Notes: a model not told the origin generated them from the sequence alone. Counted from the stretch's first letter, positions 371-55,377 are shown. The stretch is DNA of 64,000 nt from Cyanidioschyzon merolae (GCA_000091205.1 AP006492.2); one strand, 5' to 3'. A program made the numbers and translations.

Positions 371-2959
371 TCAACTATGCAGGTGCAGTCCTTCGTAATT
401 CGACACCAGCGAAGGTGGAAGCGGCACTAGTCGGGAACGTTGCGGAAGCCACGCGAGTTGCAGTGCTGGCTGCAACGCGAACGTCTCCGCGGGCGCTTGT
501 TGTCGCCGGCACAACGCAGCCGCAGGGCACAACATCGACACGCGCAGTTGCTCGAAGAAGAAGAGGCCTGGACATTGTCCGGGTTGTTCGAAATCGACGA
601 AAGGAGTTCGATTACCTGTGTACGTCACAATGGCAGTGGTTCCACCGTCGAGATCAGCAACAGTGAACCAGCCGGTGTTCTCGTGCTGCTCACCTGGGCC
701 GCAGAGCCTGCCCCAAAAACCAATACGAGTCTGGACAAGGTACGGTTCGTGGAAAACCTGCGCTAAGCAAGATAGGTAGCGGCACTGCAAGGTAGACGGC
801 GGGAGACAGTGCGCGATTTGTTGTAGAATACACTGGCGTAGTTGGGTGTACCAGAAACGTTCCAGGGGAGCCACGGCACTGGCTCCTGGTGCTAGTACGC
901 GAAGCTGGGAGGCTTCACGTTGTTCCCCTGGACCGTCAGCAGTACGTACGTTCGCAAAAGTTTCCGGGGATGGTTGGCCAGTTCGCGACGGAGAAGCTAG
1001 CGGCTGTTCCAGTGGCACTGCAAGGGCCGCAACGATAGCTGGCGCTAACGCCGAACTCGCTGCTGGTGCTGCTGGTGCTGCTGGCGAGCCCCGCAGCCAA
1101 CTCGTCCAGTGTGCACCGTACAACTGGAGACGGCGGCCGGGCTCTACGATACCGCTCGCGGCACGCTCAGGCAGAAAGAGGACTGCACTCATTCTATGAT
1201 CGGAGCTGGAGCTCCGGCAATACTGTCTGCTGCTGATGGCGCTGGCTCTGCGGGTATCGACGGATGTAAGCGGAGCCGGCGCTACCGCTGTTGCTGGTGT
1301 CTCCTCCTGCACGATAGCTTGGTCAAGTCCTCGGCGCGTTCTTGTTGCTAAAATGGCGCCATTATCGCGAACGAGTTCGCATAAGGTCGCAACATCCGGG
1401 TGTTGCTGAGCTGCGTCGGTGACTGCCCAGCGACAATCGTTCGAATTGTCCCTTGCAGATGCCACCGCTGCACCCGTATTCAAGCTCGGGCGAGCCGCCA
1501 GTTGATGCTGCGTCATGGAGACGCTTTCGGCGATATCCTCGACAGCAACAAGGGCAATTCGAAGCGGAACGGGGCGTTCGGAAGCAGCGCCCGTCCGTCT
1601 CGGGCGCCACAGGACCTTTTGCACGGTGACGGTGGGCGTAACAGAAGCGCTCTGCATTTCTGCGCGTTCAAGACGACTGAATAGCGACAAAGCAGGGTCC
1701 TCTTGTGATTGCTGGAGGAAAAGCAGGCGCCTTGACTCCCACTCCCGAAGCATTTTGGCGAAGCGGCTCATCGCGCATCGATAGTGTAGTCGGAGCGCCC
1801 ACGGCGCTCCGCCAGTGCCAGTTCGAGACAGATGCGCCTCACCTTGAGGCGAGCATGCTAGGTGCTGTCCGTCGAGCTCCAGAGGCGGAGGCGATTGCTG
1901 CTGTGTCGCGACCAGGCTCGAGGGCGATCGAGTCCCCGAACCAGTACCCCAACAGAGCCGGGAAGCAATCTTTCTTTTGCGAGCTGAAGACCAAGGCGTA
2001 CCGTCAGGATTCCCGAAAAACGTCTCCGCAAAAGGTGAGCGAAAAGCGGCATCGTCGCTCGTCTCGCGTGCTTCGCGATGCTCGCTTCTGGCGCCGTTTG
2101 AAGCAGGCTCTTCATCGCATCTGGGAGTCTGCTGGCTCATCGGTTCCGCTGAAGGGATGCGGATTCGTTTGCGGACGCTCTGTACGGAAATCGGCGGCAA
2201 ATGATGCATTCTTTCCTCGGATCGTTTTGTTCGGGCTGATGCAGCTCCGGGAGACTGGCCGAAAACAGCAATCCGCTGACTCAGTCGCGCTGGTGTCTTG
2301 CACCAACTCGACGGAATCAGGGTCCGCGGGTCATCGGCGTGGTCCACGGGACGGATGCCTGGACGGATACCGGCATCATCGGTGACATTATTTGAAACGC
2401 TACCTGTAGTACGGTCGCGCTGCAGGGCATTCTCCTCGGAGTAAGTACCAGCGTACTGTCTGGACGACAGCGAGTCTCCGAAGACCGGGGACGCATCTTT
2501 TGCACTGCCACGCTCCGTAGCGTTACAGTCTAGCGCCTGCATTTGCCGCCGGTTTCCAGCCGCATCCGCTTTTGAGCTTGCCCCATGATCAGGATCACTT
2601 GTGCGGACTGCAAGCAGCGTCTCGGGTGCAGAGAGAGCGGCGCCCGTTGAGGATCGACGTTTCGGCGGAGCGTCGTCGACCTCGTGTTTTGCACCGCCAC
2701 GCACTGTATGCGGCAAAGAATACCTACGGCGAGTGCTTCCACCTTTTTCCGCCGCAATGCGCACAGTAAACCGCATGAAGATGGAAGCTTTCCTAGAGTA
2801 GAGATTTCGCGGGAACGCGTCGGAGAGCGTCACTGCACCTGTTGTAAAGTTTGACGGCGGCGTATTTCGTCCATATTCTATAGCAACGCAACGGAAGCAA
2901 ACTTGCGAAACGTTTCGTTTGCAAGCAGAACCTGTGTTCCGTCGTACTGGGACACACAC
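371..2959 (-). CDS. Hypothetical low-complexity protein (Ser/Ala/Arg/Pro-rich), no recognisable domain
   Basis: Stop-free frame of 862 codons, far longer than expected by chance at this GC content. Opposite-strand ORFs over the same span are fragmented. The track start codon is GTG; the real start is probably an internal ATG. Strand and extent are uncertain. Confidence 0.3.
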   Translation of the reverse strand: MCVPVRRNTGSACKRNVSQVCFRCVAIEYGRNTPPSNFTTGAVTLSDAFPRNLYSRKASIFMRFTVRIAAEKGGSTRRRYSLPHTVRGGAKHEVDDAPPKRRSSTGAALSAPETLLAVRTSDPDHGASSKADAAGNRRQMQALDCNATERGSAKDASPVFGDSLSSRQYAGTYSEENALQRDRTTGSVSNNVTDDAGIRPGIRPVDHADDPRTLIPSSWCKTPARLSQRIAVFGQSPGAASARTKRSEERMHHLPPISVQSVRKRIRIPSAEPMSQQTPRCDEEPASNGARSEHREARETSDDAAFRSPFAETFFGNPDGTPWSSARKRKIASRLCWGTGSGTRSPSSLVATQQQSPPPLELDGQHLACSPQGEAHLSRTGTGGAPWALRLHYRCAMSRFAKMLREWESRRLLFLQQSQEDPALSLFSRLERAEMQSASVTPTVTVQKVLWRPRRTGAASERPVPLRIALVAVEDIAESVSMTQHQLAARPSLNTGAAVASARDNSNDCRWAVTDAAQQHPDVATLCELVRDNGAILATRTRRGLDQAIVQEETPATAVAPAPLTSVDTRRASAISSRQYCRSSSSDHRMSAVLFLPERAASGIVEPGRRLQLYGAHWTSWLRGSPAAPAAPAASSALAPAIVAALAVPLEQPLASPSRTGQPSPETFANVRTADGPGEQREASQLRVLAPGASAVAPLERFWYTQLRQCILQQIAHCLPPSTLQCRYLSCLAQVFHEPYLVQTRIGFWGRLCGPGEQHENTGWFTVADLDGGTTAIVTYTGNRTPFVDFEQPGQCPGLFFFEQLRVSMLCPAAALCRRQQAPAETFALQPALQLAWLPQRSRLVPLPPSLVSNYEGLHLHS

Positions 2960-5544
2960 ACAAGTGATCTTGGCCCGAAGAAAACTACTACCATACTCGC
3001 AAACGTTTCCGAGTCGGCATCGGGCTGGTCGACAGACGCGCGCCTCAATTCAGCGCGAGCGGGTGCTGCTCCTGCAGTACTGGAGATGTCTCCTGGGGAC
3101 GCTGCACCGCCCGTGTCCCGCGGCAGATTACCACTAAAAGCTGAACTAGCATCTTTGTTACCGCCTTTCGATGTTTTTGGTTGAATTCTACGGCCTCGAC
3201 AATCGAAGAGCATCCATAGGAGTTCAAGGATTCATACGTCATTCGAGGATTCTCGGTCGTACGCTCAGCGTGACTCCTTCGACGCGCTGTCGTTGGCATT
3301 CATGACGTCACTGGAATGAAGCTCATTCGGCTTGTCCGGGAGCAAGCGCCTGTAAAACAACAGCTATCGCGATTCAATGCATATGGACACGTCGCCGCTC
3401 TTCTCCTTTCTTTACGTGCTGTACGCTCGAATCATACATTCCTCCCAGTTTCGATCTTTCCGCTTCAAGGCAATGCGAGGGCGCAGCGATTCACGTCGCT
3501 CAGTGCACGACGGATAGCATGGCGGTGTGGCCCTTTGGCGACTTGTTCACAAGCCCACGCCGAAAGGTCATCGATCTTCTCAGGTCAAATGGTCTACTCG
3601 GTACGAGAGACAAAACCTTACTTTGTTTGTTGCCGTCGAGGATACCGCATTCTACAGCAGCACGAAGCCCAGTTCGGGATGTGTTCTGAGATGCTCCCAT
3701 CCCATCTATTTGCGAGGAAAAGGGTCCTGAACTTGGGCTGTTGCTATCTTCGTTATCGCCTCTGGAGAAGTGTGCGTCAAAGCTGTGCTTGAATGGGCGC
3801 AGACGCATCGAAAAAACTCGAAATGTGCTCCAGCGTCGATTTCTCTTCCGGTTCTTGTTTCATCGTAGACAACATCACGTTCCACAAATTCTCCATCGAA
3901 TAGAACAGCGTGTATATGCGAATGCAGCGGTGCGAGCACTCGACGGATACATCGCGTAATAGAAACACGGAATCCTTGGTTAATGCGCCGGACGCAGAAA
4001 CTAAGCAAGGCATCGTGACGCGCCTTCTGTATCCGTCAAGTTCATATGCCGAGGGATCAAGGCAAGGGATCACGCGTGACAAGACGGCGCTCGGGCCAGG
4101 GATTCGGCGCCAGTGTTGGAAACAAACATGTCCACCGCCAAGTCGCAACACTGGAAAAGGTGCATCGAGGCTGCATCCAAAGAGGATGGAAATGACAATC
4201 GTAGCGTATATTGTAACTTTGGCCTGTGCATGAAATGCGTTGACAGCAGCCGGAAGCACCCTGATCTGGTGTTTCGAGCAACCAACACCATCCCTCAACT
4301 GCCGACCCCGGATCTGGAGCCAGAAGAGAGCCTGTTGGATTTGCAGCCGTATACCAGAGAGAGCAGAAGGAAGCGGTTGCAGAGCAAGCGCGCAGCGACT
4401 GGTTTCGATGACATTGAGAAGAGACCCAAAGCCCAGTATTTACGCCCGAGGCATGGAATCTTTTCCATTTTATTCTACCATTGGTGCAGCTGCAAGCAAA
4501 GGACAATTCGTGTGCGGCACTTTGCTCGACGCTGGCTCCCCTGTACCCATGCGGCTGTCCGGACAAGATCGATCACGACTTGCTCCATCGCGTCCTTGAT
4601 TCCCGAGTCCATGGACGGGGACACAGATCAGCATTTGTTCACCGGCAGGTGTTCTGGTGACTCATTGTACATGCATGCCATTCGACTCTAGTCGCCGCCC
4701 TCCGCTGGACTACCGCACGTCGCTGCTCGTGATGACGCCCCCACCGCTGTCTGTACACACCGAGGCGCTCGGACGGTACTGAACCCCCAGACCGACGGCA
4801 CAGAGGGCATGCGGGGCCTCAGGCGCTACCGCAGCAAAGCGCTCCCTTCCCGTCTGGCGCGATGTTGTCCAGAGCGCTATGAGCATGGACCTCGCCCTGC
4901 AAAACTTTGTCAGCGTTTCATGCAGCGGCGCACGGCAGATTCCCTTGAAAGTCACCGCATCGAACTGTTTGCGTCGGTGAATACCACTATCGGCAGGCAG
5001 CGGTTTCAAGAACGCCACGTGGCTTTGCTTCTGCATGGTTCGCGCACTTTTTCCCGTGTGAAACCATGCCTCATCGCTTGCTGGCTGGGATTCCAGTTGG
5101 CCTCTCCGAATAGCGCAAAATCACCAGCTTACTTCACGAATAGTCGAACAGCTGCGTAGAGCCTTGTGGCTTGCCCCAATATTCGGGAGCTAAACATGAT
5201 CCACACAGCGGAAACGAGTCCTCTTTACACGTAAATAGCAGACAACATGAACGACTCCCACGGTGTTCTGTTCGGCAGCGTCGATGAGCGTGGCGGCTCG
5301 CCAAGTACCTTGGAAGCTGACCACCCACGTTGTACGGCGTAAAAGCGTCCTTTTTGTAGATAGACTACGCACCACTTGGACCTTGACGGTGTGATTCTTA
5401 GGTTGAAGTTTGCACTCGCTTCCAAGACCCGCTAGAAAAGACCCCCTAACTCGCTGTTTCCGAAACGCCGCGAGACCGGGAAAACGTCTCCATATGCGCG
5501 AGCACAAATTCTCGTCCTCGTCATTGTTCAGGGGTTGGTGGTTC

Positions 5545-5835: not shown

Positions 5836-8800
5836 TGCCCTCCGGGGTGTACCAAGTGTTCGCCCGGCAGGGCAACCGGCCTCGCGTTCGACCCATAGAC
5901 TCACAGGGCGCTCGTCGGCAACGAGCTCCGGCAGAGAGGTTTACGAACGTTGCATCCATAGACGCTCTGGGAACCCTACTGACCCTTTATGAATCGAAGT
6001 AGACTCTTGGGCGTTGCAACGCCGCGCTGGACCCAGAACTTCTGCATCAGGCTGTGGTGCCGTGCTTCGTGCCAGGGGTACCGATGATACCGTCCGAGGC
6101 ACGAAAGCCGAGTGCAAGTATCGCGTATTTAGGGCATTCGCATTCAATGCTCTGTGAACGTACTCAGACTCGTGCAACGTTGCACGGCCGTCCATCGCAA
6201 TGGGAGATGTGTATGCATGTATACGTGTCTATGTGCGCTTCGTTTACAAGCAACTGCACACAAGCCGCCCGCTAGCTGAGCAGGTCGACGCGATCGCTCT
6301 TCGAATCCTGAGTAACTTCATACAATGAAACACGATGATCGTCTACCAAATGCTCGAGAAAACTGTCCCCAGTGTTCGTATAAGGCGGTCCAGTCTTTGC
6401 GTTTTGCTGCAGCGTACCGTAACTGTGCCTTGCCCAAGGCGAGCATCCAACACATCCTCGACTGGCTACTGATTTTTTTCATCGAAAGTCTTGATCATTC
6501 CAGCTCAATTCCCACACTGAGGATGAAGCGATCCGTATGAAATTCCGCTTGACACAGTGCCGCTGGACGCTCCCAAAAGCGCGAGATATGCCCGGATGTT
6601 GATCGAGCCGCTCAAGTATCTGTGCACAAGGCACTGGCGCTTTTTCTTGTTGGTGGAATCACACCATAGCACGCCGCTCCCCGTACATCAATTCATACAT
6701 CGGTCTCTGTTCCACGCTCTGCGTTTCTATCTGTTTCAGCGGACACCTACGCTCGTTGTAGGTCTATGTCGCATTGAAAGCACCGATCGGAATCGTATCG
6801 AATCGTATCCTGCGATCGCTGTATGCTCTCGTCGAAGGATAACGAGCGCAGCCTTGGCGCGCTGCAGCACGTCCAGCGCCATAGGCTCCTATCAAATAAC
6901 ATGCCTTTTAGGCCAGTTCCTTTTCCACCACATGGAGCAAGTTATCGAATTTACGCTTCTTGTCTCTTTCGAAATGAAACCGTTGGTGATCCCAGCACGC
7001 TCTCATGCAGCCCCGCCAAAGATCGTCTGTCTCGGCCATTTCGACGCTCACGGACGGTCTCTTGCGTAGGATCTCTCCCACAAGTCACGATTTCAGGTCT
7101 AGAAAAGTGATGTTACAACGTGCACAGGGTGCGCTCCATGATGCGCTGGAGAATGACCCGTATACGCTTTTGTTTTTTGAGGTTGTTTTGATACCTGTTG
7201 GTACCTGCGCTATGGATTTTTTTCGACCAACAACGTCCCGCGGCTGCACTTCGAGATATTCCACAAACCATGTATGTAAATCTCCGATCCTGTGATCAAG
7301 CTGTTGTGCGTCTTACATTTCGCGCATCCGTTGTGTTGGCGCGGGAAAGCTTCATCGAAATATGGCAGAGGAATTTGGATAGCTGGCAGCCCCGCGGCTA
7401 TAACCCCTACCAACAGTTGCTCGACGATGTGCACCAAGGCGAGGGACGTCAGGCGAGCCTTCCTCAAAGAAGAAGCTACGCGATACCTGTTGGCGTCCTG
7501 CATTTCACTTTTTGTAAGACCTTCCCGTTCATGAGTTTTTGTCGCGAGGCCGTGATAGCGTTTTCATTCTGAACTTTCCCCACCAAGAGCGTTTTCTTCT
7601 GGTCATATCTTGACCTGTTTTCGGAAGAATCGTTTCTTTTATTGGCCTATGCTCTTGATCTTCATCTTTACTTGGTCGGGTGGCATGTATTTAGGCGCCA
7701 TCCTCCACTTCCGATCTTTCCTCGGAACTGAGGCACACTGGGTACATGGTAGCACTGACAAACGCCTTTTGTGCGGTAACGTCTGCGGCATCTTACGCAT
7801 CTTTTCGTCAGATGCTTCGCGAGCATGCCTTCGAGTCAAAGCACGTCTTTTCGCTGGCTCCCGCGCACGGGCAGCGGGGCAACACGGCAGTTCGCGGTTG
7901 GGAAAGTGGTAGAAATCGACCATGAAAAGAACGAATTGCGAAGGAGTCATGAACTCGAATGTCTCTTCCATTGAACCGCGAGTGTAAATACCGCATTCGA
8001 CAATGGAGCGAAGACGCATTCGGCAGGGTCAACCAGGGAGAACAGACTGGCACGAAGCGTAGCTGAACGCCAATTTCAACTGCGTATTCCCTGACAGCTT
8101 TGGTGTCAAGGTAATCGTTGTTTCATTGGAGCAGAAGAACGGAATTCGAGAGGGCAATTTCCCGAAATGCCTCGATGAATGATGCAATGAGGAACGATCT
8201 AGTCCACTACGTGATTTGCAGGCGACCACATTATAGTATTGGTGCTAGGGCTGACGTCGTCGTCAGGCTCGTTTGTCTCTTCTTGACGAACTGCGGTTTC
8301 ACCCTCTTGGAATGCTCATTCGCAGATCAACCATGTGGTCCGGGCCGAGACTTACCGAGTGAGGCGAATACGCTTCCCTCCTGTAACAGGAGTTCACGTT
8401 CCAGTGCGGATTCGGTCGTGTGTTGTTCAACGCGATACGGTGTCCAAGAGAGGTGTGTTTTTCTCTTTGTACGTATGTGTCTTTTCATGACATTTCGTAT
8501 CATGGGCGCGCAAACTTCACATTCTGAGCTTCTCAGGTATTATGTCTTAGTGACAAAACCGCGTGTAAGGTACTGGCGAGGAGACTGTCTTATCGATAGA
8601 GTCTAAGTTCCAATTTGAGTGCACGATGTTCCGAATGACGATTACCATGAAGGGTACTTGATCCACCTTTCGACCGCAGAGTATCTGATATATCGAAGCA
8701 AGGCCGCTTTGTCGCAAGGTAGCAGTAGCGGCATAAACTTTTTCCGCATCCTTGCTCCGATCTACAGGATGCATTCCTTTTACTGCGAATCTGTACGAAG

Positions 8801-24392: not shown

Positions 24393-27300
24393 TGGTGCGG
24401 GGCTTTAGCGTTGCTCCTTTGCTGAGCATACCATGCCAATGTTCCGCTCCAGACGAGAATTCAGTGTCACTTCTCCTGGCCTCTGATTCGTTTTCTTGCA
24501 AGTCTGTAGCGTTCCAGTGCGATGCCTCTAGTGAGTCACCTACGATGTCCTGGAACATTCGCGCACCTCAGAGCAGTTGGACGCGGCGGAAGCGCGACAA
24601 GCGGTAGCATAGTATTCGGGGCGTTCAAGCCTCGGTGCAGATTGTGCTAGCGCAAAGTTTTCCCGGGAAATAACACACGAGAGCGAGCATCATACCCTGG
24701 ATGACCTTGTCATGTGATGTTCTGTCAGTGAATTGTCGAACATGTCGCGCATTCGCCTCTGTTTCAAATGTTGCTTGTCTACCGATTTCAGAGAGCACCT
24801 GTGCCCATGTTGCGTGTTTGTCGTCCGGAATGCATCGATGCGAGAACTGGACCATCGAGGCTGGCGCTGGTTGCGCGGTCTCCTCGACACAGAGGGTGTG
24901 TAGTCATCGCGCGCTACAGCACATCCAGCCCCGCAGGATACCACCAAATGATGCGACTTGTCGGTGAGATCCTTTTCCAACTCATTAAAATCGTCGGTGG
25001 ATGCACGCTTCTTGTCTCCGTGCAACCGCAACTTGTGCTACTCTGGCGCGGTCTCAGGTATTTCAGCCAAACATCGTTGATACGAGTTATTTGGACGGTC
25101 CTGTAAGCTCCCTGAATGAAGCGTAGAGAGCGACGCCATCCGTGCTGGAAACGGTGCTGAGAGCTTCGAGGTGCCGCCTGATACCTGTATTCCAGTTATT
25201 GGCACGCCGTTTGGTGCTCACGATTCCTGACTTGCGATAATACCCATTCCTGAAGAAGCTGAGAAGTTTCATCTGATTTCCGTTCAGGTCTCCGGCGCCG
25301 TGCTTTTGATTCAGAGTTATGGCGACGGACAAGACGTCCTTCGACAAGGGATCCACATTCATCACGGGGTACTCCTGCTCAGTTACCTTGAAATGTTAGA
25401 CATGCGTCCGTCGGTCGGCTCTGGTCTAGGTATCACGGAATGCATGCAGATTGATATTCCGTCCGACTCCATCGTACCTGTAAACTTCTTTGCTTTTCTC
25501 ACTATGAAGAAGATTCCTTGAAGGAGTTCCTCTAATGCCGTTGGTGAAGACGTTCGAGTGCTTCATACTTGTGTGCAGAGACCAGTGGTAGCCCACTGAG
25601 GAGGCCAATCAGCACAGGACAACATTGTCTGCGGAGTTGTACTGGGTCTCGATGTGCCGTATGGGAAATACATCGAATAGATCCCCGAGGAAGTTGGGCG
25701 CTCGAATCCAGGAACCAAGTCTGCTTTGCTTAGGAGCGCTCAGTGCAGGGAATCTCAGAAGCGCAGTATTCGAAAAAGGCATGTATCCCGTTTCAAACAT
25801 GCTTCGGATACGAGTTCCGTGTACTTGATTCCGAGAGCAACGCCATGAGCTTGGACGATCGGAAGCGAACTCGCTTCCACTGCGACATCTGTTCCGTACT
25901 CGCGAGCTCCTCGATCGTCTCCGCAGTCACCAGCTCGTCGTTGACCGTCATCGATACTCCGCGAATGCCGTTTATCAGTCCCAACTTAACTGGGACAGTA
26001 CGTTGAGCGCGCAACGCCTCCAGTGTACGCTGCACGAACCAATCGACGGTGACCAGCATATGGTTTATGAGGCTGGTATGATGCTTTTGGGCACCTGCTC
26101 TGTAGACACTCCGGTTACCGACGTGTCGCGCCAATGCCTCCAGGTATTCTGGGAAGTGTGTATGTGTGCGACGCTCTAATCCGACGATCATGCGGTATGT
26201 CGTCTTCTGTCTGGAGCATCAGCTGTGTTGTCGCATGCTGGTTTGGTCTAGGTATGCGAGAGGAAGGTCGGTAGCCAGCTGTTCCGACACCGGAACTCCT
26301 ACAAGCAACTGCTTGATGCGGTGCGTCCTCGCGAGCGGAGCCAGGCACGACATTCTCGAGTATAGAGCGACGTGATCCCCACTGGCGTCTTGCATTGCAC
26401 TTTTTGAGAAATTATTCCTGGTGAGGAGTTTTGTTAGGCAGGCCTCGACAGTGATTTCAGAGTACTGTTTCCGCGTAAACCGTTCCTCCTGTCGATCTTT
26501 GCTTGGTGTCGTTTCGCGAGGATTTTTCTCTTCTTTGTTCAGGAGTTTCCTCGCCTTCTCATGACTTGGCGGGCTAGCATGGATACTAACGCACTACTCC
26601 GTATCCTTTATTCCGCAGTATTCAGATCCAATACGTAGACGTGGACACTGAAACTCGCCTGTTCTTCGTTTGTTTCTCCCATTCCTCAACTACCTCTTCG
26701 TCACCTGGTCCGGGTCGACCACGTCCGTGGACCGAAGCGCGCCGTTCCGCTTTCTCCCGCGTACGAGCAGCGAACCAGCACTGCAATGCACGGCAGGTGA
26801 ATGTGTAGAACCAGTCGACGCAGAGGGGTTCGTCGAAAAACCGTATCACAGATACGAATGACTCATCCATAGAAGCATGAGCTTGAATATGGCATTCGAA
26901 AAGGAGAACACGCCTCGGACTCGATTGAACTAGGGAGAAGATGCTAGCACGAAGAAGTGCTCAACACGAATCGCTGATGCGAACCGCTTCAGCGCATTTG
27001 AGTGATCGGAGTCCATGGTATCTACGAACAAGACACAAGAATCTGGCGAGCACAAGTCACAAAGCGCGTCAACGAAGAATGCGGTGTTGAACAATTCAGC
27101 CCTTGCAACAATTCGTAGGCGAACACACCATAAAATCGTTGTTTGGGCTGGTGTTGTCGTCACGCTCGCTTGCCTCTGCTTGACGAACAGCGGTCTTTCC
27201 CGTGTTAGGTACCGGTATTCAAGGCTAGCATTTCCCTAGGCAAGTCTCACCGAAAATGAAGAGCTCCCATACCTCCTGTTGAGAGCATTCGCATTTCAGT

Positions 27301-27850: not shown

Positions 27851-29338
27851 TTAAGCGGTGGCCACGCTGGCACCAGCACCGTTCTGTTGTGCCTCCTGTC
27901 GAATTCGTTCTGCCTCTCGAATGCGACGCTCAAGCTCCGGTCGGAAATGCCGAATAAGCCCCTGCACGGGCCAGGCTGCAGCATCACCCAGCGCACAGAT
28001 CGTATGACCCTCGATGTTCTTCGTGACCTCATACAACATATCGATTTCCTCGATTCGGGCATCGCCTTTCTCCATGCGACACAGCATTCGATGGAGCCAA
28101 CCGGTGCCCTCACGACACGGGGTGCACTGGCCGCATGACTCGTGCTGGTAGAAATAGGAGATGCGTCGAATCGCCGCAACGATATCTGTTGAACGATCCA
28201 TCACGATGACTGCAGCAGTGCCCAGGCCACTGCCAACCTCTTTCAGAGCGTCAAAGTCCATCATCACATCATCACAGATGTCCTTGGGCAGCAATGGAAC
28301 CGAACTACCACCGGGAATGACAGCGAGCAGGTTCTCCCAGCCGCCGCGTACGCCACCAGCATGGCGCTCGATAAGCGTCCGCAGGGGAATGCTCATCTCC
28401 TCTTCGACCACGCAGGGGTTATTCACATGCCCGCTTATGATGAAGAGTTTGGTGCCGCAGTTATTCTTACGACCGAGCGAGGCAAACCAGGAGCTGCCCC
28501 GACGTAGAATGGTAGGCACCACTGCCACGGTCTCCGTGTTGGTGACGGTGGTAGGACACCCGTACAAACCAATATTCGCGGGAAAGGGCGGTTTCAAGCG
28601 CGGCTTGCCTTGTTTTCCTTCCAGCGATTCCAGGAGTGCAGTTTCCTCACCACAAATATACGCCCCAGCTCCATGATGCACGTACACATCAAAGTCGTAG
28701 CCACTGCCACATGCGTTTCGACCAATGAGACCCTTTTGGTAGGCTTCTTGGACTGCGCGCTCTAACTGTTTACGCTCGTAGACGTACTCGCCGCGAATGT
28801 AGGCGTAGGCTGCGCGAGCACCCATGGAAACACCGACCAAAAGCATGCCCTCCACGAGTTTATGCGGATCATGGCGCATGATTTCGCGGTCTTTCGCAGT
28901 TCCAGGCTCCGACTCGTCACAGTTTACGACGAGATAGTTAGGTCGGCCGTCCGGATTCTGACGAGGCATGAACGAGTACTTGAGCCCGGTGGGGAATCCG
29001 GCACCTCCCCGCCCTCGTAGACCGCTGGCTTTGATCTCGTTGATGATCCAATCGCGACCTTTCAAAACCAGGTCTTTGGTACGGTACCAGTCGCCTCGCT
29101 TGAGTGCGCCATCTAGGAAAGCATCTCGTTCACCATACAAGTTTGTGAAGATTCGATCCTGGTCCTTCAACAAGCCATAGCTACGCTCGGCGTTCGACGC
29201 CCGCCACGTTTCCGGTTTCGGGGCTGGAGCTCCAGTTGCAACGCTGCTGGAAGAACGCAGCGTTGTGAACACGCCAACCAGCCAGCGTGTTCTCTTATGC
29301 ACCACACGCTGTAAGCTTCCACGAACAGCACCTTGCAT
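27851..29338 (-). CDS. NDUFV1: NADH dehydrogenase (ubiquinone) flavoprotein 1, complex I 51 kDa subunit, with mitochondrial presequence
   Basis: Near full-length match to NDUFV1/NuoF ([44 protein letters not shown], the C-terminal Fe-S binding [10 protein letters not shown]). First in-frame ATG at 29336-29338 gives an R/S-rich presequence; the track start at 29461 is GTG. Confidence 0.95.
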
Positions 29339-30759
29339 GGGAAGCACTACACGGGAAACTGCTGGGAGCACAGTTTGGTACTGAAGAAAAACACCTCGAC
29401 GCTGGAGCAGTGGCGGAGAGCGGAGTGGTGTTGTCGGCGCCGTTGCACCGAGCGCGTTCACCCGATAACAAATCGCTTGCGGGTGCTTTACAGGGCTGTT
29501 GTCTGCTGGGGTGCGTATGACGCTGGCGTGGGTGCGGATCGTACGGAATTGAGTGCCTGAGGAAGTAGCAACTCGATGATGGATTCTTTCGACTTTCCCA
29601 TTAATCTTTGGAAGGAGGCGACGCTTTGCGTATCATCGAAAGTTTGGCTTCTTAGCAGAAATTCTCGTTAAGCGGATGAGTCTGCCGGTTTCGTGCCTCA
29701 TGCTCCCTGCTCCAGTGGCGGTTGCTATGACGAGACACGAGCAGTTTTTCTACAAAGCAGTCTTACTCTGGGACTAGGAGCGGTCAAGTTGCATCCAGAA
29801 GTCGTCCTGGTCGCGGTGGTCTGCTGGTGTATCGCTTCGCGTAGTCGCAGGCAGGGGGTGTATCTGCGCAGTCTCCGGGCTTCCAGCTTGATAACGAATC
29901 CCGAGCTTGTGCCGGGTGAACCACGTGTCGAGCCGACGCCTTTCGGGGTATGATAATGCCTTGCTGTCTATATGCTATGTCCGCATCGGCGTTATAGGTG
30001 CTTTTACGGGGCTTATGGCTGGTTCGGTGCACGGTGGATCATAGGCAATGATTCGTACATGTGAAAGGAGGTATCGGGAGCAGAGCCTGACCCTAGCATC
30101 AAGCATGATGGACGTTTTTGCGATGACGGATATCCACCGCGCAATCCTGGATCCCTGCTTCATGTAATCCTCCAGTCGAACAAGAACGAGGATCGCATGT
30201 TTGCATTTTTTGACGTCAGAAGGATCAATGATCCTAGACCGCAAAGAAATTGGGCGAAAGCATTCGTCTCTAGGATCAGGTGCACACACGTCTCAGATGA
30301 GAGACAAACTAGAGGTTTTCTGGGGGATTTTCGCGCGCGCTGGTCAGGCGTGCGCATCATGGGATGATAGGGTGTAAGAAAAACCATGTTTGATCCATTT
30401 TTTCTCATTTGAATGCCGGGAGCCTGCATCATGGATCAGGCGCATACAAGCACTCGAGACAGGGAGCGCATACGGCAACGCGTCTCTCTCGGTTACATCG
30501 ATTTGTCCGGTATCCGCAGCGGTGCACTGCAGCACACCAATGGGGGTGTCGAATGCGCATATCCCGCCATTCGCCCTGATTCCCGTCATGAAAGTGCACA
30601 GCTCGTACTCAATCGCTCCAGGTGCTTTGCAGCTGCTTCTTCATAGGAGCGGTGCGTGGTTCGTGGAACGCGCGCAACCTGCGCGTTCCGACGCTCACTG
30701 CACGTTCAAAACCTGGTGAACGCTGCGCAGAGAGGCTCGCGAATGCCGGTCGTGTTCAT

Positions 30760-40281: not shown

Positions 40282-41814
40282 TTAAATATCTAGGCCGCTC
40301 ACCAGCGGGCTGTTTCGCTCTTTCAGTGCCGTGATAACGGTGTTCACATCCTTGTCTCCTCGACCGGAACAATTCACAACAACGATCGGGCGCGCTCCTG
40401 CGGGAATCGTATCGTTGATGCGTTTCAGCGCTGCAAACGCATGGCTCGTCTCGAGCGCGGGTAGGATGCCCTCCAGTCCCGAGACCAACTGAAAAGCATC
40501 CAAAGCCTCTTCGTCTGTCACCGAGAGGTACTCTGCTCGCCCAGTGTCGCGCATAAAGGCATGCTCAGGGCCGACGCCTGGGTAATCGAGACCCGCGCTT
40601 ATGGAGTGCGCCTCTACGATCTGTCCATCGTCGTCCTGGAGCAAGTAGGACATGCTGCCGTGGAGGACGCCGACCGAGCCCTTTGTCAGTGTGGCAGCGT
40701 GTTCGTGTGTATCGAGGCCTCGACCTGCAGCCTCCACCCCAATAAAACGCACACTGGGTTCGTCCACAAAGCGGCGGAAGAGACCGATAGCATTGCTGCC
40801 GCCGCCGACGCAGGCCACCAAGATGTCCGGCAATCGACCAGGGCCGTGCCGCTCTTGCACTTGCTGGTATACTTCCTCACCGATCACGTAGTGGAAATCG
40901 CGCACCATGGCTGGGTACGGGTGAGGTCCGGCTACGCTGCCGACCACATAATGCGTCGTGCTTGGGTTTGTCACCCAGTCGCGGATGGCATCCGACAGCG
41001 CATCCTTCAACGTTGCCGTCCCGGTGTGTACGGGTCGCACTTCGGCGCCTAGCAAACGCATCCGAAACACATTCAGCTTCTGACGTTCCATGTCGCGGGC
41101 ACCCATGTACACAACGCAAGGCAGTCCGAAGCGTGCACACACGGTGGCGGTGGCAACACCATGTTGGCCCGCGCCCGTCTCCGCGATGATGCGGGTCCTG
41201 CCCATGCGTCGCGCTAGCAACACTTGACCGAGTGCGTTATTGATCTTATGGGCACCTGTATGCAGGAGATCTTCTCGTTTCAGGTAGATTTGCATACCAG
41301 ATCCATCCGGACGCGCAAAGTGAGCCGTGAGACGCTCGGCAAAATAGAGCGGCGTCGGTCGACCAGCAAAGTCTCGAAGCTGTTGTGCTAGCTCCTGTTG
41401 AAATGTCGGATCTTTTGAGACCTTTTTGTAAGCTTCTTCCAGCTCTTCAAGACACGATATAAGGGTCTCTGGCACAAACTTACCGCCAAAAGGCCCGAAC
41501 TTGCCACGCGCGTCCGGCACGCTCGACCGGTAGCGTCCAATGCGGCCGCGCAGGTCTGTCACGCGTTCTCCATGCTCGATCTCCTCGGGAACGACGTTTT
41601 CGGTCGCATTGTCCGCAGCCACGGAACGTTCCGGTGTCATGAGCATGCTAGGCAAGAACACGGTACGGGCAGCGGGGTTTTGCGAACGCGCACGTCGTCC
41701 AAGCGTGCGCCTGTTGTCCACGCTACGACCGCTGTTTCGCGTGAAGCGTTCTTTCGCAAGAAAGAAGCTAGTCGTGTTTGATAGTGGTGCGACAAACGCT
41801 GTGCAGTTTAGCAT
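40282..41814 (-). CDS. trpB: Tryptophan synthase beta chain (standalone, PLP-dependent) with about 100 aa transit-peptide-like N-terminal extension
   Basis: [28 protein letters not shown] (PLP lysine), [20 protein letters not shown], and C-terminal GRGDKDV. No fused TrpA domain. N-terminus is R/S/T-rich. ATG at 41812-41814. Confidence 0.9.
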
Positions 41815-41838
41815 TGTTGGATATCCGTTTCGTTCCTA

Positions 41839-43977
41839 CTAGGTACAGTGCAAAAAATCCAGTGTCAGCTGAAAAACAAAGAACGCCCTCAGCGTCGAAC
41901 GTCGCCGGTAGTGTGGAAGAATGGCGGTGAACGCGTCCGAGCCAAATCGTCTCGAACTGACGTGCAGACGCCTCCGCGTCTTTTTGGACCTGCCACCTAC
42001 TACTGCTTCCAACTTCTTCTCATATAATTCAACTTGAAAGCATTGTCCAACTAAATTCCTTCTTGTCCATTCTGGAGGTCTTTTCTCCTGCACTGCACAT
42101 CCCCGTATACTGACGGCGGCATTGAAGTCGCGGTTCACAAACTACATACGTTTCTCGCCATTTTTGGTACTTACCATGAAAGTAGTCCTCGAACGTTGGC
42201 CTTCCTTTCTATTTGCTCTTCCGTCATCGCTCCGTACTTTTTCATATCCGCAGGGCTCGGCTGGCATTTTTCTATCTCGACCCTCTGAAGTGTACACCCC
42301 AACACATGGTGCGTAAACGTTGTTCGGAACTCATCTACAGGTATCGTAACAAAACGCCGTGCGCACTCCTTGTACGTTCTTGTCGTTGGAGCTGGCGCAG
42401 TCCCTTTTTGGGTCTTCCATCGCCCTGCCCCATACGCTACTGAGAGCCTCTGACGTTCATCCTCCTTCAAGGCGCTCAACTGATTGAAAAAGTTGGCAAA
42501 CGCCCGCTGCTTCCCACAATACAAATTCATTCGCAGACGAGCCCACCGAGGCTTTGTATACTCCTCCCACAGTGCACCCCAATGAGCAACGAGAACTTCC
42601 ATGAATTTCCGAAAGGCTTGAAAGTCCGCTCCTCGGCTCGTGATCTCTCTCATAGCTTCCAGGTGATCCCTCAGTCCTGCAGTCCACGTCTCAATTTTTC
42701 TTGCATTCATGATTCCCGATTCTCGATAGTATCTCGCTCTCGAGAACCTCAAAAGACGCATGTCTTTCTGACGTAGCTTGCCGTCAATGCCATTTTCTGC
42801 ACGCTTGGGTACAGCGACGGCTATGATATTTGTGTTTCCGGGGTCCGCGCCAATGACAAAGTCATTATCCTCTACCTCCTGCGTCGCAGGATCCGCGTCC
42901 TTCTTATCTTCATGCTTCACCAAGGACAATATCGAGGACGGGCCAGGACGATCTCTCTTCAACCGCCGATAGAGTACACACATAGCTACTTCATCGGTTT
43001 CGATTATCCCAGTGAACTACGTTTGCTTGTTCATTTTGAGACGTTTGAAATCGAAGATATTCTTCCCGTACGTCTCCCGGTTTTCGCCGGTGAATTCCTC
43101 CCTGCTAACATTGAACTCCGGACTGATCTCCTTCATGATTCTGTAAAGGACAGCGGAGTCGATAGTCACAAAGTGTGACTTGATGTTGCACAACGGAACG
43201 ACGTTGAAGCGCTTCCCCATTAGGACAGCCTTCCATCTCTCCCATTCTTCATTTTTCCTCACTCAGCTTCACCTCTGCCTGGCGTTCGAGCTCTCGGTCC
43301 AGAAATACGAAATACCGCAGAATGAGGCGATAGTATCTTTCCGTATCTTTTTTCAACTCTGATATCTTTGCTGCGGGATTCGCCAGCCCCAAGAATGCAC
43401 GGTGCTCTTGTATAGCCGCGTGGATTACAGAAGCTTCATTCGTGCTCCTGCGTGGCGTCTTCTTGTGGACAAATTCGATCTCATCTTCATACTTTCGATC
43501 GTTGGTGATGCCATTGGTAATCGCCCATACTCCTTTGCGAGACAGGCCCGGGTATAGCGCAAACACGGCGCGTATCATGAAACGCTCCGGGTTCATAGTC
43601 AAATGGTTCCTCAGGTTCGTGAGTTACTCCATTGCCCCATAGTCGTACATACCCCCGTCACCCTTGTATCGAGTAAACTCAAAGGTGTAAATGGGATGTT
43701 TTTCGTGGAGGCCGTGAACCCGCTCATTTTCCCTCCGCGCTTTCTCTGTACCAAGCATCAGGCGGCGAATAAAGGTCATGTCGAAAACCTCATCCGGGAC
43801 CTCGACTGTTTCCATGTGCGCCACGTCTTCGTCTATCTCCCTCGCCAACTGTATCAGTCCTGACGACGCCCTGACAATACTCGTGGAGTACGAGTCGACA
43901 CGTTTTTTGATAGCGTCTCGCAACTTTTCCCTGTAGGGATCCTTGATTTGATTCAGGAGAAAGGCTTTCACCACCAT
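41839..43977 (-). pseudogene. Fanzor/TnpB-like (OMEGA, RuvC-like RNA-guided endonuclease family) gene, disrupted by two in-frame stops and two frameshifts
   Basis: Five collinear minus-strand ORF pieces: 43977-43624, 43602-43249, 43262-43017, 42983-42171 and 42138-41839. RuvC-I-like [17 protein letters not shown] sits in piece 4. A ...RRFVTIPVDEFRTTFTHHVLGC... segment (typical TnpB region preceding the zinc finger, which is degenerate here) follows. RuvC-III MNRDFNAAVSIRGCA sits in piece 5. Pieces 1/2 and 3/4 are each separated by a single in-frame TAA/TAG. Junctions 2/3 and 4/5 are frame shifts, and tested GT-AG splicing did not restore the frame. Confidence 0.55.
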
Positions 43978-44520
43978 CTCGTCCTACAGTTGTCTCTCTT
44001 GCCGCCTTCGATGTTGGGCCTCCCTCTTCGGTCCTTCTTCTCTTCCTTTTCTTCTGGACTAGGCAATGTTTTTTGTTTTTTCTGGCAGCCGGCGACCATG
44101 GGCCTGCAGGATCGTCGACTTGCTTTTTCATAGCAAGTCCACGATTTTTTTCGTTTTTTCGAGAAAGAACGCCCTTTGAAGCCTTCTGTTATGTATTGCG
44201 AAAAAACACTTGACAAGACTTGTTCGAAGTTTGAAACACAAATGAACTGAAAACTGTACTTGGATATGAAGTCAACGGAAATACATCTTTTACCTTAGGG
44301 CTACAAGCTAGAGATCAAGATCGCGTTTCCCTTCACCGGCGACATGCGCATAGCGTCAGTTGACTGCCTGATCTCCCAGGTGCGCTCACCGAGCGCGATT
44401 ATTCTTTCAGATGACAAAACGTTGACATTGACCATGGATCCCAGAATTCGGAATGGATAATGGCTTTCGGGAAAGCGTCCATGATGAAGCAACTACATCC
44501 AAGTTCCATTACCCATACTT
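41839..44520 (-). mobile_element. Probable transposon relic carrying the Fanzor/TnpB-like gene (approximate boundaries from the GC drop)
   Basis: Lower-GC block containing the Fanzor remnants plus about 500 bp of AT-richer sequence upstream of its ATG. Ends and TIRs not resolved by eye. Confidence 0.35.
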
Positions 44521-46919
44521 CATCTCGGATATTCTGGTCGTTTCATACGTTCTGTCGTGTGCCGAGTGCCTACCGTGAGCACCCGCCGTAGCGCGTATAC
44601 CGCTGAAGCAGATGCTGCACGGAGACAGGACGGCGCTGCCGTACCGCTGAGGGCGTCGAACCGAGGCGCTTGTGGTGCATGCTGGTATGCCTGCGGCATG
44701 CTTTTTTCTGCCTCTATGCGTCCAAGGTACCGGCTTGTCCGACACTGCTATCCAGAGGAGCCTTCTCGCAGCTAGCCGTTCGCATATGTAACGTGAACTT
44801 GTTCACGCGTGCACCAGTGTGCTACTGAGACCAGCCAGGTACGCGCAGCTGGGTTCATGACGAACGTGTTTCATTTTCCCACTGAGCTCGGGCAATACGC
44901 AGATCGGCTCATACATGCTCTGGAACGCGCTGCGGAAGCGAACGCCGCCATTCTGTGGCTATCCGGGAGCAACAGCTGATTCGAGTTCATGGACTTTGGT
45001 ACAGCGCTCGGCTCCTTGTCAACGATGCTTGTCGTTGGCACCGAGGCTCGGCCGCTGTGCCTCAGTCGTTTGCAACGCGGCACCGAGAAGCGCGCTGCTG
45101 TACCATGTGTCACGAACGGGATGCGTGCGTTCGCACCAGGCACGACAGTGCACGCAAGCTGTTACGCATCGACTTCGGCGCTGCGGCCTCGGACGACTCG
45201 GCGTGCACGCATACCCACAGATGACGTGTACGTTGTAGCGTGCACCAACGACGACGTCGTTACCCTAGTTGTATATGAGATATACTCACCGGATTCCGAC
45301 TTGTATGTTTCGTACGTTCTTCATCAGGGATGTCAAGAACTGTAGTTTCAATGCCAGAGACACGAATCTGCAAACGTATTCGCGACTTTCCGAAATGTTG
45401 CTCGTGGCACAAGGTTAAACGTGCTCGAGCCGGTGCCTTGAGAGGCAGCGCAACGCCCTCGCATCACAATCTGACGTTTGAAGTGAGGTCGGCGCTCGGT
45501 GTATCTCAGGGCAAAGGCGTTCTTCTTTCGAGGAAAACCCGGCTGCGCTTGTTTGGTCCGCACTGGTGGGGAACGTAAGCTTCCCGACGAGAGCTGAGGC
45601 TCATTTGCTGTCTGCCAACTTTGGTGATGCATCCGAGGAAATCTGGTTCGATGCAGCGGCCTTGTATCAGCATCAAGCGCACGCTAGCGCTGCGGCAGCT
45701 GTTCGCGTTTCACTTGGCTGATTGCCTCAGCCGCCTGTATTCGAATGGATCACGAGCGTTGCTACGGTGATTTCGCTTGTACCGTAAGTCTTGGTCGTAA
45801 ATTGTTATCACGGCGCATGTCTGTGGGTTTGTTAGCGTCTCGATTCACGTAATGACATGGTGGGGATATTCGTTCTTCTTTGCCGTCGCCATTTTGCATG
45901 CCATATCCTGGGGTGGCCTATTCCAGAGCACGTGCCCAGACACAGCGCTTGCTGACGAACGATCGAAGGAATCCAAGCGCTTGTCCAAATCCGCATATGC
46001 AGGTGTGCCCGCAAAAGAGTGTCTCCAACACTCTCTGCGGCCATTTGTACGTTCTGTCGGCCTCAGCTCTGTAGTTACCCGATTGCATCGGAGCTTGATT
46101 GTTCCAGCAACGCTGCTCAATTGCAGTGTGAAACACTTGCATTGCTCTGACGTCGGATGCTGCTGAGATAGCGGGGAAGATCCGTGCCATTCTAGCTGAG
46201 ATAGCGAACGTTATGGTGAACTCCTGTCGAACACTTGTTCGGTATAAGGTGCGTTCCAGTACGACTCGGCGAGCGCTGCGCAGCTTACATCACTTTTCAG
46301 AAAAGAGACGTCGACGAACCCTGCAAGAATGACCGAGGCAGCGCAAAGAAAAAAAGCCAGCTAGCGTCTGGGTGACGAGGTCCAAGGCCTCGCTACCGAT
46401 CCCAACGCAGCTGCCAACTAAGAGATATTGCGAGAACCAGGTGAAAGGTTCAAAACTCGACTGGCAACACTCGTTTCAAATCAGCACACGCCGCAGTTGA
46501 TGTTGCTCTTCAAACGATTGCAAGCGTAACGAATCAGAGGAGCTGGTGGTTTTTACGTTTTCGCGTCGATTCGTCACACCACTTGCCTGTAGACATACGT
46601 AGCAACGGAGGCTGCTCCGTGTGCAATCACAAGAGCCGCGATCAGGGATGGCTATCTTCCAACGACTTGCAAAGCACCGTGACTGCAACACATGCGGCAG
46701 GGTCGACCGATGCCAGCAACAGCAGTTTCGCTTAGGCGGCCGCGGGCATGCAACCTGCGTCAGTTGCACTGCAGCCAGCTGTGCTTCCGCTCTGGCAACA
46801 GCGTAGGTGTGCGTGTGTGCGCTAAAGTTTACCGCACACGTAGCACATCAGGTACTTGAAGGGACTGCTTGGAAACCAAGCGTGGGTAAGAATTGGGACG
46901 GTTGAATTAATTGGTTTTC

Positions 46920-54405: not shown

Positions 54406-55377
54406 CACACTGGAGCACATTTCGTTTTCTTCTGCAATACCTCTACGCTCCGGAAATGTTCTCACCTTTGGGTGTAAACAATAACTTTCATTTTGAAAAA
54501 TAAGGAATGACCTGGGCTGTACACTTTTGAAGCTCAAGACGGAAGGCAGGCTGCGGGGCGCTTCGGCGAAAGAAAAGCACAGAGAGCCGAGAGAGCACCA
54601 AATGGCACGGAGAGCACGTGCTCGACGGCTCCTCGCATCGGAGAGTTCCACCAGATACAACAAACGCAAGGAGTTTATATGCGGAGACTACAACGGGGCC
54701 ATCAGTGTCAGACGATGTGCGGTGCTGGAGACAAAACCCGCGGAACTAAGGTGATCCGACTTAATGGGGCACCCTCTAAAGCTCTCGAAGTGTACACGGA
54801 TGAATGGAAGCTGGCGGCAGTCACCCGGTCGGAAAAAGGCTGGGAGGCGTCTGCGCGTGGATAGATATATTTACTATCTATCGACGTCAAACGTTTATCA
54901 TTTTACCGATCGTATAGAGCAGTCGCCTAAAGCAAGTGATACCCGCCGATGCGTCCCGCTACTTACTCTTGATCCCACATTCAGTGAGCACGAGTGCCTC
55001 ATGACCCGAGCAGCTCAAATATGCCTCCGAAACGACTGTAAGGAGAAACGAGCGATACACTGACTAACGAGCACAACCCTGCTTCCGTAACGACTGCATC
55101 GGTATACGAGCACACATAAAGCGTGAAACGGAGAAAATACGCTCTTACGGGATCCAAATACCCAGCCGGCTATGCGCCGCTGAAGAGCAAAGAAGCGCAC
55201 GGCACTCCGGAAAGCGACCTAACGGCGTAAGGTTGTCGTCAACACGCTCGCCTTTGCGAAAGTGGCAAGTCAGAGCGCTCCGACTCTTGGACAGGGTATC
55301 GTGGTCTTCTAGGTATCGACGATGTGGTGTGGCTTGCGTTGACTTTTCGGGTGTCTTCTACTGGAACTCGTATCCCG

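Follow-up and report, generated by a model that had tools for sequence, protein, structure and literature searches.

In the alga Cyanidioschyzon merolae, the gene for the tryptophan synthase beta chain (trpB) lies directly downstream, on the same strand, of a decayed Fanzor transposon of the CMe-1A family. Both are found in a genomic stretch of 64,000 nucleotides (GCA_000091205.1 AP006492.2), hereafter the window, whose positions are used throughout. The trpB gene occupies 40282..41814 on the minus strand, and the Fanzor unit of the pseudogenised element (approximately consensus positions 648-3169) was delimited to 41884..44399 on the minus strand by blastn and tblastn comparisons with the published consensus. 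That the transposon supplies trpB with a promoter or a 5' untranslated region (5'UTR) is plausible but unproven, on the basis of the geometry of the locus and of a bias in the position of CMe-1A copies that appears at the level of the family. A probability of roughly 0.55 is assigned to the idea that the promoter or leader of trpB physically includes the 3' end of the element. Whether the adjacency of relic and gene goes beyond chance is not judgeable from a single locus; for the CMe-1A family, it does. The arrangement at trpB is typical of that family, and at several of its sites the remnant of host DNA between element and gene is too short for a promoter.

Boundary between the CMe-1A relic and trpB

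A Fanzor-family relic had been placed directly 5' of trpB on the same strand by a first-pass annotation of the window, and protein and DNA alignments bear this out. Residues 1-733 of the CMe-1 consensus protein align to 44131-41944 on the minus strand in four frame segments, with 62-83% identity (tblastn): residues 1-21 at 44131-44069, residues 36-294 at 44028-43252 (frame -2), residues 294-654 at 43256-42177 (frame -3) and residues 650-733 at 42195-41944. At the DNA level, consensus positions 648-1120 match 44397-43919, and a 3' piece from the last 159 nt matches 42035-41922, with 78-88% identity (blastn). According to its published description, CMe-1A is present in C. merolae in about 150 copies that are some 80% identical to a 3169-bp consensus and devoid of terminal inverted repeats, and it encodes a 734-aa Fanzor1 protein with the C-terminus HVSWRRFV (Bao and Jurka, 2013; PMC3627910). 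The window copy shares with this family the full-length protein alignment, the C-terminus, the position of the stop and the 3' terminal DNA, as well as its general features, namely a unit of about 3 kb, many copies that are about 75-80% alike and the lack of terminal inverted repeats; it differs in being a pseudogene whose 5' module is truncated and inverted. By sequence, the relic is a copy of CMe-1A, a known family.

For trpB, the 3' end of the element is the one that matters. It was analyzed with a hidden Markov model (HMM) built from 78 copy ends, with 50 copies that have distinct flanks, and with the published consensus terminus. That terminus, CTTTTGAAAGGCG, corresponds to window position 41884; the HMM matches 42004-41892, and DNA homology to 80 paralogous loci ends at 41881-41959 on the trpB side and at 44399 or 44668 on the other side. 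Past the consensus end, the pairwise identity between the flanks of the 50 copies is 0.49 over positions +1 to +8 and 0.31 over positions +9 to +16, and beyond this it is no higher than the background of 0.25; family similarity extends about 8-16 nt past the consensus end. The tail of intact copies base-pairs with an upstream CACC... segment and thereby closes a terminal hairpin, which in an end of the L015 type has 19 bp and a folding energy of -13.1 kcal/mol (z = -4.35). Because of the flank similarity and of this hairpin-closing tail, the transposed unit seems to be about 16 nt longer than the published CMe-1A consensus end, and it would reach approximately 41864-41868 in the window. The element-end zone at 41864..41883 (minus strand), as delimited by the decay of flank identity and by hairpin pairing, contains a degenerate 3' tail, TTCTTTGTTTTTCAGCTGAC, within which the exact end is uncertain. 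This tail resembles those of copies L060 and L077, and GGTG is a common ending among copy tails. Pairing is retained in each of two hairpin subfamilies, TTCGACTTTCGAA and TTTTTCTTTTGAAAG.

The segment that follows, at 41815..41863 on the minus strand, is read as a host-derived spacer that would constitute the trpB 5' leader, the core promoter or both: it lies beyond about +16 from the consensus end, has no similarity to the 50 paralogous copies and is ATG-free. The distance between the element and the trpB ATG is 49-69 nt, as given by the consensus end and by the decay of family similarity. This value differs from the gap of about 25 bp first reported for the two genes. On the minus strand, a TAGTAG doublet is present at 41841-41836 and the trpB ATG at 41814-41812, with 24 nt between the TAG at 41841-41839 and the ATG, so the reported spacing of these two codons and their shared strand are correct, but that TAG is the end of neither the Fanzor gene nor the element. 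In 14 paralogous copies, the nuclease frame ends with RRLHVSWRRFV and a stop codon that precedes the consensus end of the element by 56-59 nt. Comparison with these copies and with the published protein places the canonical stop, TAG in intact copies, at 41938..41940 (minus strand), where the window has TCG. Because this stop is mutated, the open reading frame (ORF) runs on across the element end into host DNA, and the 25-bp gap is an artefact. The last ORF piece thus comprises an accidental read-through at 41839..41937 (minus strand), from the non-coding 3' end of the element into host DNA up to the TAG at 41841-41839, and its final 8-15 codons together with that TAG are host flank. The related proposal that the element extends past the nuclease stop holds for intact copies, in which the 56-59 nt are followed by the tail of about 16 nt; in the window, however, the element ends upstream of the TAG at 41839.

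Position of CMe-1A copies relative to host genes

The 3' ends of the CMe-1A copies (loci L007-L086) were located with the HMM and collapsed to 43 distinct insertion sites, and the first downstream ORF of at least 120 aa was taken as the 3' neighbor. Of these neighbors, 27 share the strand of the element and 15 lie on the other strand. A same-strand ATG lies 17-66 nt past the consensus end, or 0-50 nt past the hairpin end, at 12 of the 43 sites, and at 6 of the 43 the element is followed within 40 nt by the end of an ORF on the opposite strand. When the same procedure was applied to intergenic positions picked at random from the window, the frequencies were 4.8% and 2.0%, respectively, and the same-strand distance had a median of 523 nt. 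The corresponding binomial P values are 6e-7 for 12/43 and 1e-10 for 18/43.

The downstream ORFs are real host genes, including those for a cysteinyl-tRNA synthetase (CysRS), topoisomerase I, a Macro-domain protein and a methyltransferase. In the case of CysRS, the ATG lies 30 nt past the consensus end and must be genuine because the catalytic domain begins at residue 27 and the next Met would remove the HIGH motif. The accessible portion of the CMe-1A paper makes no mention of position relative to host genes, and the word "promoter" is not found in that text (PMC3627910).

A broad generalization can be offered tentatively, although we regard it as doubtful: CMe-1A elements would habitually sit 3' end first, in sense orientation, tens of bases upstream of host ATGs, and their outward-transcribed 3' end, the presumed omega-RNA region, would supply the transcription start and 5'UTR to dozens of housekeeping genes, including trpB, CysRS and topoisomerase I. 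As a further possibility, such positions might be maintained because the guide taken from the flank then matches sequence that is under constraint and evolves slowly, by analogy with the targets of homing endonucleases.

Several loci carry pairs of CMe-1A copies in the same orientation, 3.1-3.9 kb apart and head-to-tail or nearly so, namely L018 (ends at 1129 and 4990), L061/L062 (1056 and 4994), L068 (1338 and 4477) and L070 (1798 and 4937). In L061/L062, the Macro-domain host gene lies between the two copies.

Transcription of trpB

The insertion would have displaced the former upstream DNA of trpB by about 2.8 kb. Because that DNA has been pushed away and 49-69 nt of host DNA are left, transcription of trpB would have to begin within the short spacer or else within the terminal 150 nt or so of the element, which contain no ATG. 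The pre-initiation complex would be assembled at least partly on transposon DNA, with the 3' end of the element forming the upstream part of the promoter and possibly part of the 5'UTR. The sense strand is ATG-free for about 210 nt before the trpB ATG. ATG is genuinely depleted over the final 156 nt or so of the copies, but, owing to their common ancestry, this counts as one event (P about 0.1). One C. merolae transcription start has been reported, about 165 nt upstream of the ATG (PMC12989068); a leader of 165 nt at trpB would therefore begin inside the element.

The arrangement at trpB seems to reflect a habit of the family and not a special adaptation at this gene, copies being strongly enriched just upstream of same-strand host ATGs. 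A plausible reason for this enrichment is that the 3' end of the element is built for outward transcription, which would be needed to make an omega-RNA that takes its guide from the flank. TnpB and Fanzor proteins are omega-RNA-guided nucleases of IS200/IS605-type elements and of their eukaryotic descendants. CMe-1A resembles these systems in the RuvC-like D...E...RD arrangement of its protein and in a non-coding 3' end that is conserved and foldable, overlaps the ORF terminus and extends as far as the boundary of the element; an omega-RNA scaffold with a flank-derived guide would be expected here. The conserved 3' 150 nt are 88.5% pairable, compared with 36-56% for slid controls, with covariation in this sub-alignment not above that of shuffled alignments; RNAalifold found no structure in the full 269-column alignment, and no Rfam family matches the 3' end of the element. 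The likeness to TnpB and Fanzor systems is limited by the missing Rfam match and the weak covariation support for a fold, and by two features of the protein: HH..C..C replaces the C4 zinc finger, and the window copy has lost the capacity to encode a nuclease.

Transposon-derived promoters and 5'UTRs are familiar from the outward promoters of bacterial insertion sequence (IS) elements, from solo long terminal repeats (LTRs) and from miniature inverted-repeat transposable elements (MITEs) near plant genes. The trpB locus is similar to these cases in that a sense-oriented mobile element lies immediately 5' of a host gene that needs expression. It differs in that the end of the element is unconstrained among strains and in that the promoter role is deduced here from position.

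Several observations weigh against a role of the element, and some of them would equally fit an inert neighbor, that is, a transposon that contributes nothing to a complete trpB promoter and transcription start contained in the 49-69-nt host spacer, together with downstream elements. The closeness would then stem from a preference of insertion for nucleosome-free gene boundaries or from later loss of dispensable DNA. Among 20 haplotypes, variable sites amount to 0.2% in the trpB coding sequence (3 sites) and to 1.3-1.8% in other intergenic DNA; the last 260 nt of the element (41882-42140) are 5.5-8.5% variable, a figure that paralogue-driven assembly noise may inflate. The spacer has three variable sites, two of them at its distal edge, and its proximal 60 nt have one singleton (41856). 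The high variability of the element end, set against the single variant of the proximal spacer, is as expected of an inert neighbor, and it argues against sequence-specific constraint on the transposon end, on which no purifying selection is visible among strains. The terminal hairpin is degraded in the window copy (z = 0.12). A motif scan found no TATA box on the sense strand of the 5-kb region upstream of trpB, nor does the element end have any other recognizable promoter motif. The promoters of C. merolae are uncharacterized (PMC12770821), which leaves room for very short leaders or for promoters within 50-70 nt.

The family survey has weaknesses of its own. The orientation bias by itself is weak (27:15), and copies also abut the 3' ends of opposite-strand genes (6/15 within 40 nt); these six neighbors imply that the closeness is not only promoter-side, and targeting or genome streamlining may account for it. 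The 5' ends of the elements are much farther from genes than the 3' ends (d3/(d3+d5) below 0.25 at 14 of 20 sites), but 5' boundaries are less certain than 3' boundaries.

On the other hand, an RNA polymerase II pre-initiation complex spans about 60-80 bp, and the only reported C. merolae start is some 165 nt from its ATG, both of which fit poorly with a promoter confined to the spacer. At the CysRS, methyltransferase and topoisomerase I sites, the host remnant is 14-30 nt, too short for a promoter. The spacer is also too small for a significant contrast in polymorphism, with 0.9-3.7 variants expected and 1-3 seen. An inert neighbor is a possible explanation for trpB, albeit a less likely one.

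A different proposal holds that trpB is transcribed from its original host promoter, now farther upstream, or from the Fanzor promoter, and that the element is read through or spliced out as a 5'UTR intron. The relic and trpB are on the same strand, and the tail TTTGTTTTTCAG looks like a polypyrimidine tract that leads into CAG. However, most tails of the family end in GGTG and not in CAG, and no GTAAGT/ACTAAC architecture brackets the element, the sole GTAAGT being at 42174, with no ACTAAC. The idea of a 5'UTR intron was rejected for want of this donor and branch-site architecture. C. merolae has only about 27 short introns, which also weighs against a spliced leader, and trpB could not be translated behind an unspliced leader of 2.5 kb that contains a long ORF and many ATGs. 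This route has only a very slight chance of being correct. Short Logan/JGI contigs (L109-L112) that carry trpB and begin in the 3' region of the element were considered as candidate transcripts; they hold downstream genes on both strands, and were discarded as genomic contigs broken at the repeat.

The trpB presequence, decay of the relic and other elements

The product of trpB, of 510 aa, is identical to the C. merolae 10D protein (BAM80312.1 / XP_005534919.1). It scores 608.8 bits against TIGR00263 (cut-off 392.45), with residues 104-495 covering model positions 1-383 of 385. It corresponds to cluster member P0167, the 10D protein, and exact-sequence look-ups return identical contigs; the window thus matches strain 10D. 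With 72-74% identity to cyanobacterial (Nostoc) TrpB, the protein is of the cyanobacterial type.

The TrpB domain begins at residue 104, and the 103 preceding codons (41506..41814, minus strand) are read as a plastid transit peptide with a Phe motif (F7 codon at 41796-41794). A Phe-based N-terminal motif is the plastid-targeting signal of rhodophytes and glaucophytes (PMC7038456; PMC2222254). As in those transit peptides, the window presequence has a Phe within the first 3-7 residues, ahead of a cyanobacterial-type TrpB, and what follows is rich in Ser, Thr and Arg with few acidic residues, as in rhodophyte transit peptides. A Phe is found within the first seven residues of all three TrpB N-termini compared, those of the window, of contig L087 (MPFATAFIVSL) and of contig L088 (P0049; MAAFVAG). 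The L087 N-terminus lies in frame upstream of the called start, and a 530-aa call (P0169) exists; the protein cluster of this contig includes Cyanidiococcus yangmingshanensis KAK4529854.1 (454 aa). L087 has an orthologous K+-channel gene, 1.3 kb of intergenic DNA and then trpB, and tblastn found no Fanzor homologue anywhere in the locus, including the 3.0 kb upstream of trpB. L088 shares with the window the genes downstream of trpB, for Ac45/VOA1 and a MIF4G cap-binding protein, and tblastn found no Fanzor homologue in the 10 kb upstream of its trpB. The non-coding DNA of L087 is too diverged to align with the window, and an empty site is not reconstructible from it.

The presequence had been suggested to be encoded by element-derived sequence. 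Proximity, and nothing else, speaks for this idea, which is almost certainly wrong. It is refuted by the element boundary, which lies at least 49 nt upstream of the ATG and leaves the presequence wholly in host DNA; by the comparison with paralogues, in which 41506-41814 shares no sequence with any copy; and by the relatives, whose homologous presequences have no Fanzor homologue for at least 1.3 kb upstream of trpB. Because the N-terminus with its Phe motif recurs in L087 and L088, where tblastn found no Fanzor homologue in the 3.0 kb and 10 kb upstream of trpB, the presequence is ancestral, host-encoded and needed.

The same annotation offered an internal Met (Met57, in the MLMTPERS region, at 41646-41644) as the alternative true start of trpB, all that is upstream being leader. 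Some gene callers have chosen it, as in P0168 (454 aa) and in the 454-aa Cyanidiococcus protein KAK4529854.1, and the sequence surrounding this Met is conserved across genera. However, the frame 5' of it is open for 56 codons in the window, 76 in L087 and 48 in L088, with a joint chance of about 2e-4 if it were non-coding, and each of the three begins with a Phe-motif N-terminus. The residues that follow the internal Met are acidic and without targeting character, and a start there would lose the plastid-targeting signal. The public 10D annotation (510 aa) starts trpB at the ATG at 41814, the 530-aa Cyanidiococcus call also uses the upstream ATG, and L113, the contig behind the 454-aa call, keeps the upstream ORF intact, with an R23S substitution. 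Use of the internal Met as the start is thus very unlikely.

The relic is assigned to Fanzor by its motifs and by its similarity to the published family, because the ORF pieces, a joined 712-aa reconstruction and a family profile gave no match in sequence searches of Pfam, NCBIfam and the PDB. An AlphaFold2 model of the intact paralogue P0001 had a mean predicted local distance difference test (pLDDT) score of 36, too low for fold comparison. The motifs, located by tblastn and frame reading on the minus strand, are a RuvC-I-type GADPGNTN at 42828..42851, a RuvC-II-type VDEFRTT at 42318..42338, followed by HH..C..C (42311-42261), and a RuvC-III-type NRDFNAA at 42115..42135, which matches NRDFNAAINI of the published consensus. 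Of the Fanzor/TnpB motif D-X(125,275)-[TS][TS]-X-X-[C4 zinc finger]-X(5,50)-RD, the D, TT and RD are present, and HH..C..C takes the place of C4, as it does in the family consensus. The joined Fanzor-like frame matches 44 metagenome proteins with 54-78% identity, and a metagenome scan returned at least 254 related loci, some in samples that also hold an identical TrpB. The sole named distant homologue of CMe-1 is an 861-aa protein of Haematococcus lacustris (P0046), which is 30% identical over 37% of the query and carries a hAT dimerisation domain (PF05699). The region at about 41800-44450 has a G+C content of 0.47-0.52, compared with 0.55-0.61 in the flanks, and a strong strand skew.

The frame of the relic contains three frameshifts and stops at 43626-43624, 43019-43017, 42173-42171 and 42144-42142, and its canonical stop is lost; judged from this frame, the relic is a pseudogene that could not encode a nuclease. 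One frameshift lies at about consensus residue 294 (43249..43256, minus strand), where the tblastn frame changes from -2 to -3. The stop at 43017..43019 (minus strand) was found by frame reading. A cluster of inactivating lesions at 42142..42195 (minus strand) comprises a frameshift, RGLLSW/STKNGEKRM, the TAA at 42173-42171 and the TAG at 42144-42142, where intact copies read RGLLALVSTTxxGKKRMEFVNRD. A 33-nt "intron" (GTAAGT...TAG, 42174-42142) was considered here and rejected: its length would keep the frame where a change of frame is required, and intact paralogues read straight through. The nonsense codon at 43624..43626 (minus strand) is present in the window strain only, being a Cys codon in six related contigs. 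Related contigs (L001-L006 and L089-L098) are 99.2-99.5% identical to window 41876-44447, and an extra G at 42701 is found only in them. As different strains carry different lesions, decay of the frame is proceeding independently within the population. Variants are several times as dense inside the element as in other intergenic DNA, and one contig, L095, has an identity of only 97.2%. Gene conversion with paralogues or chimeric assembly could explain the strain differences in the relic.

On its far side, the relic is flanked by a fragment of the TE-N2_CMe module at 44410..44666, which matches CMe-1A consensus 2-256 on the plus strand, opposite to the Fanzor unit (blastn, 86.8% over 257 nt). 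In the published description, this module is the 5' 635 bp of CMe-1A (PMC3627910); in the window, it is truncated and inverted with respect to the published consensus, rather than 635 bp long in consensus orientation. The truncated and inverted arrangement is common to several paralogous loci; in many others, homology breaks off precisely at 44399. TE-N2_CMe may therefore be an independent element with a tendency to insert next to CMe-1A.

Elsewhere in the window, a solo TE-N2_CMe-like copy at 29625-30167 (minus strand), with 70.5% identity to consensus 15-554, lies just upstream of a same-strand ORF at 27851-29461. A second, much more divergent Fanzor1-like relic at 24672-26575 (minus strand) is 24-33% identical to CMe-1 over residues 13-656, its matches being spread over several frames, and is probably a member of a different family. 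Fanzor-like fragments are found at 54506-54859 (plus strand), with 44% identity to the C-terminal part of CMe-1 and a match of 54825-54858 to the consensus 3' DNA, its end truncated, and at 6662-7060 (minus strand), with 30% identity to the C-terminal part of CMe-1. These three relics were considered as evidence on 3' flanks and set aside as truncated and uninformative. The 2.2 kb or so between the element and the K+-channel gene (44669-46910) lack a long ORF, and comparison with the orthologous intergenic region of 1.3 kb in L087, the Cyanidiococcus-like locus, detected no similarity.

For the trpB locus itself, the outcome is mostly clarifying, in that the relic belongs to a known family, the apparent end of its last ORF results from decay and the transit peptide is ancestral. 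The family-wide bias in position is the part worth following: at more than a quarter of the independent sites, no more than 66 nt, of which 14-50 nt are true host DNA, separate the element from the start codon of a host gene that lies on the same strand and is often essential. Should transcription at these sites begin within the element, a Fanzor transposon would rank as a major source of promoters and 5'UTRs in a genome that is among the most streamlined of eukaryotes. It would also provide a first handle on the core promoters of C. merolae, which are uncharacterized (PMC12770821). C. merolae allows gene targeting by homologous recombination, which makes the idea directly testable.

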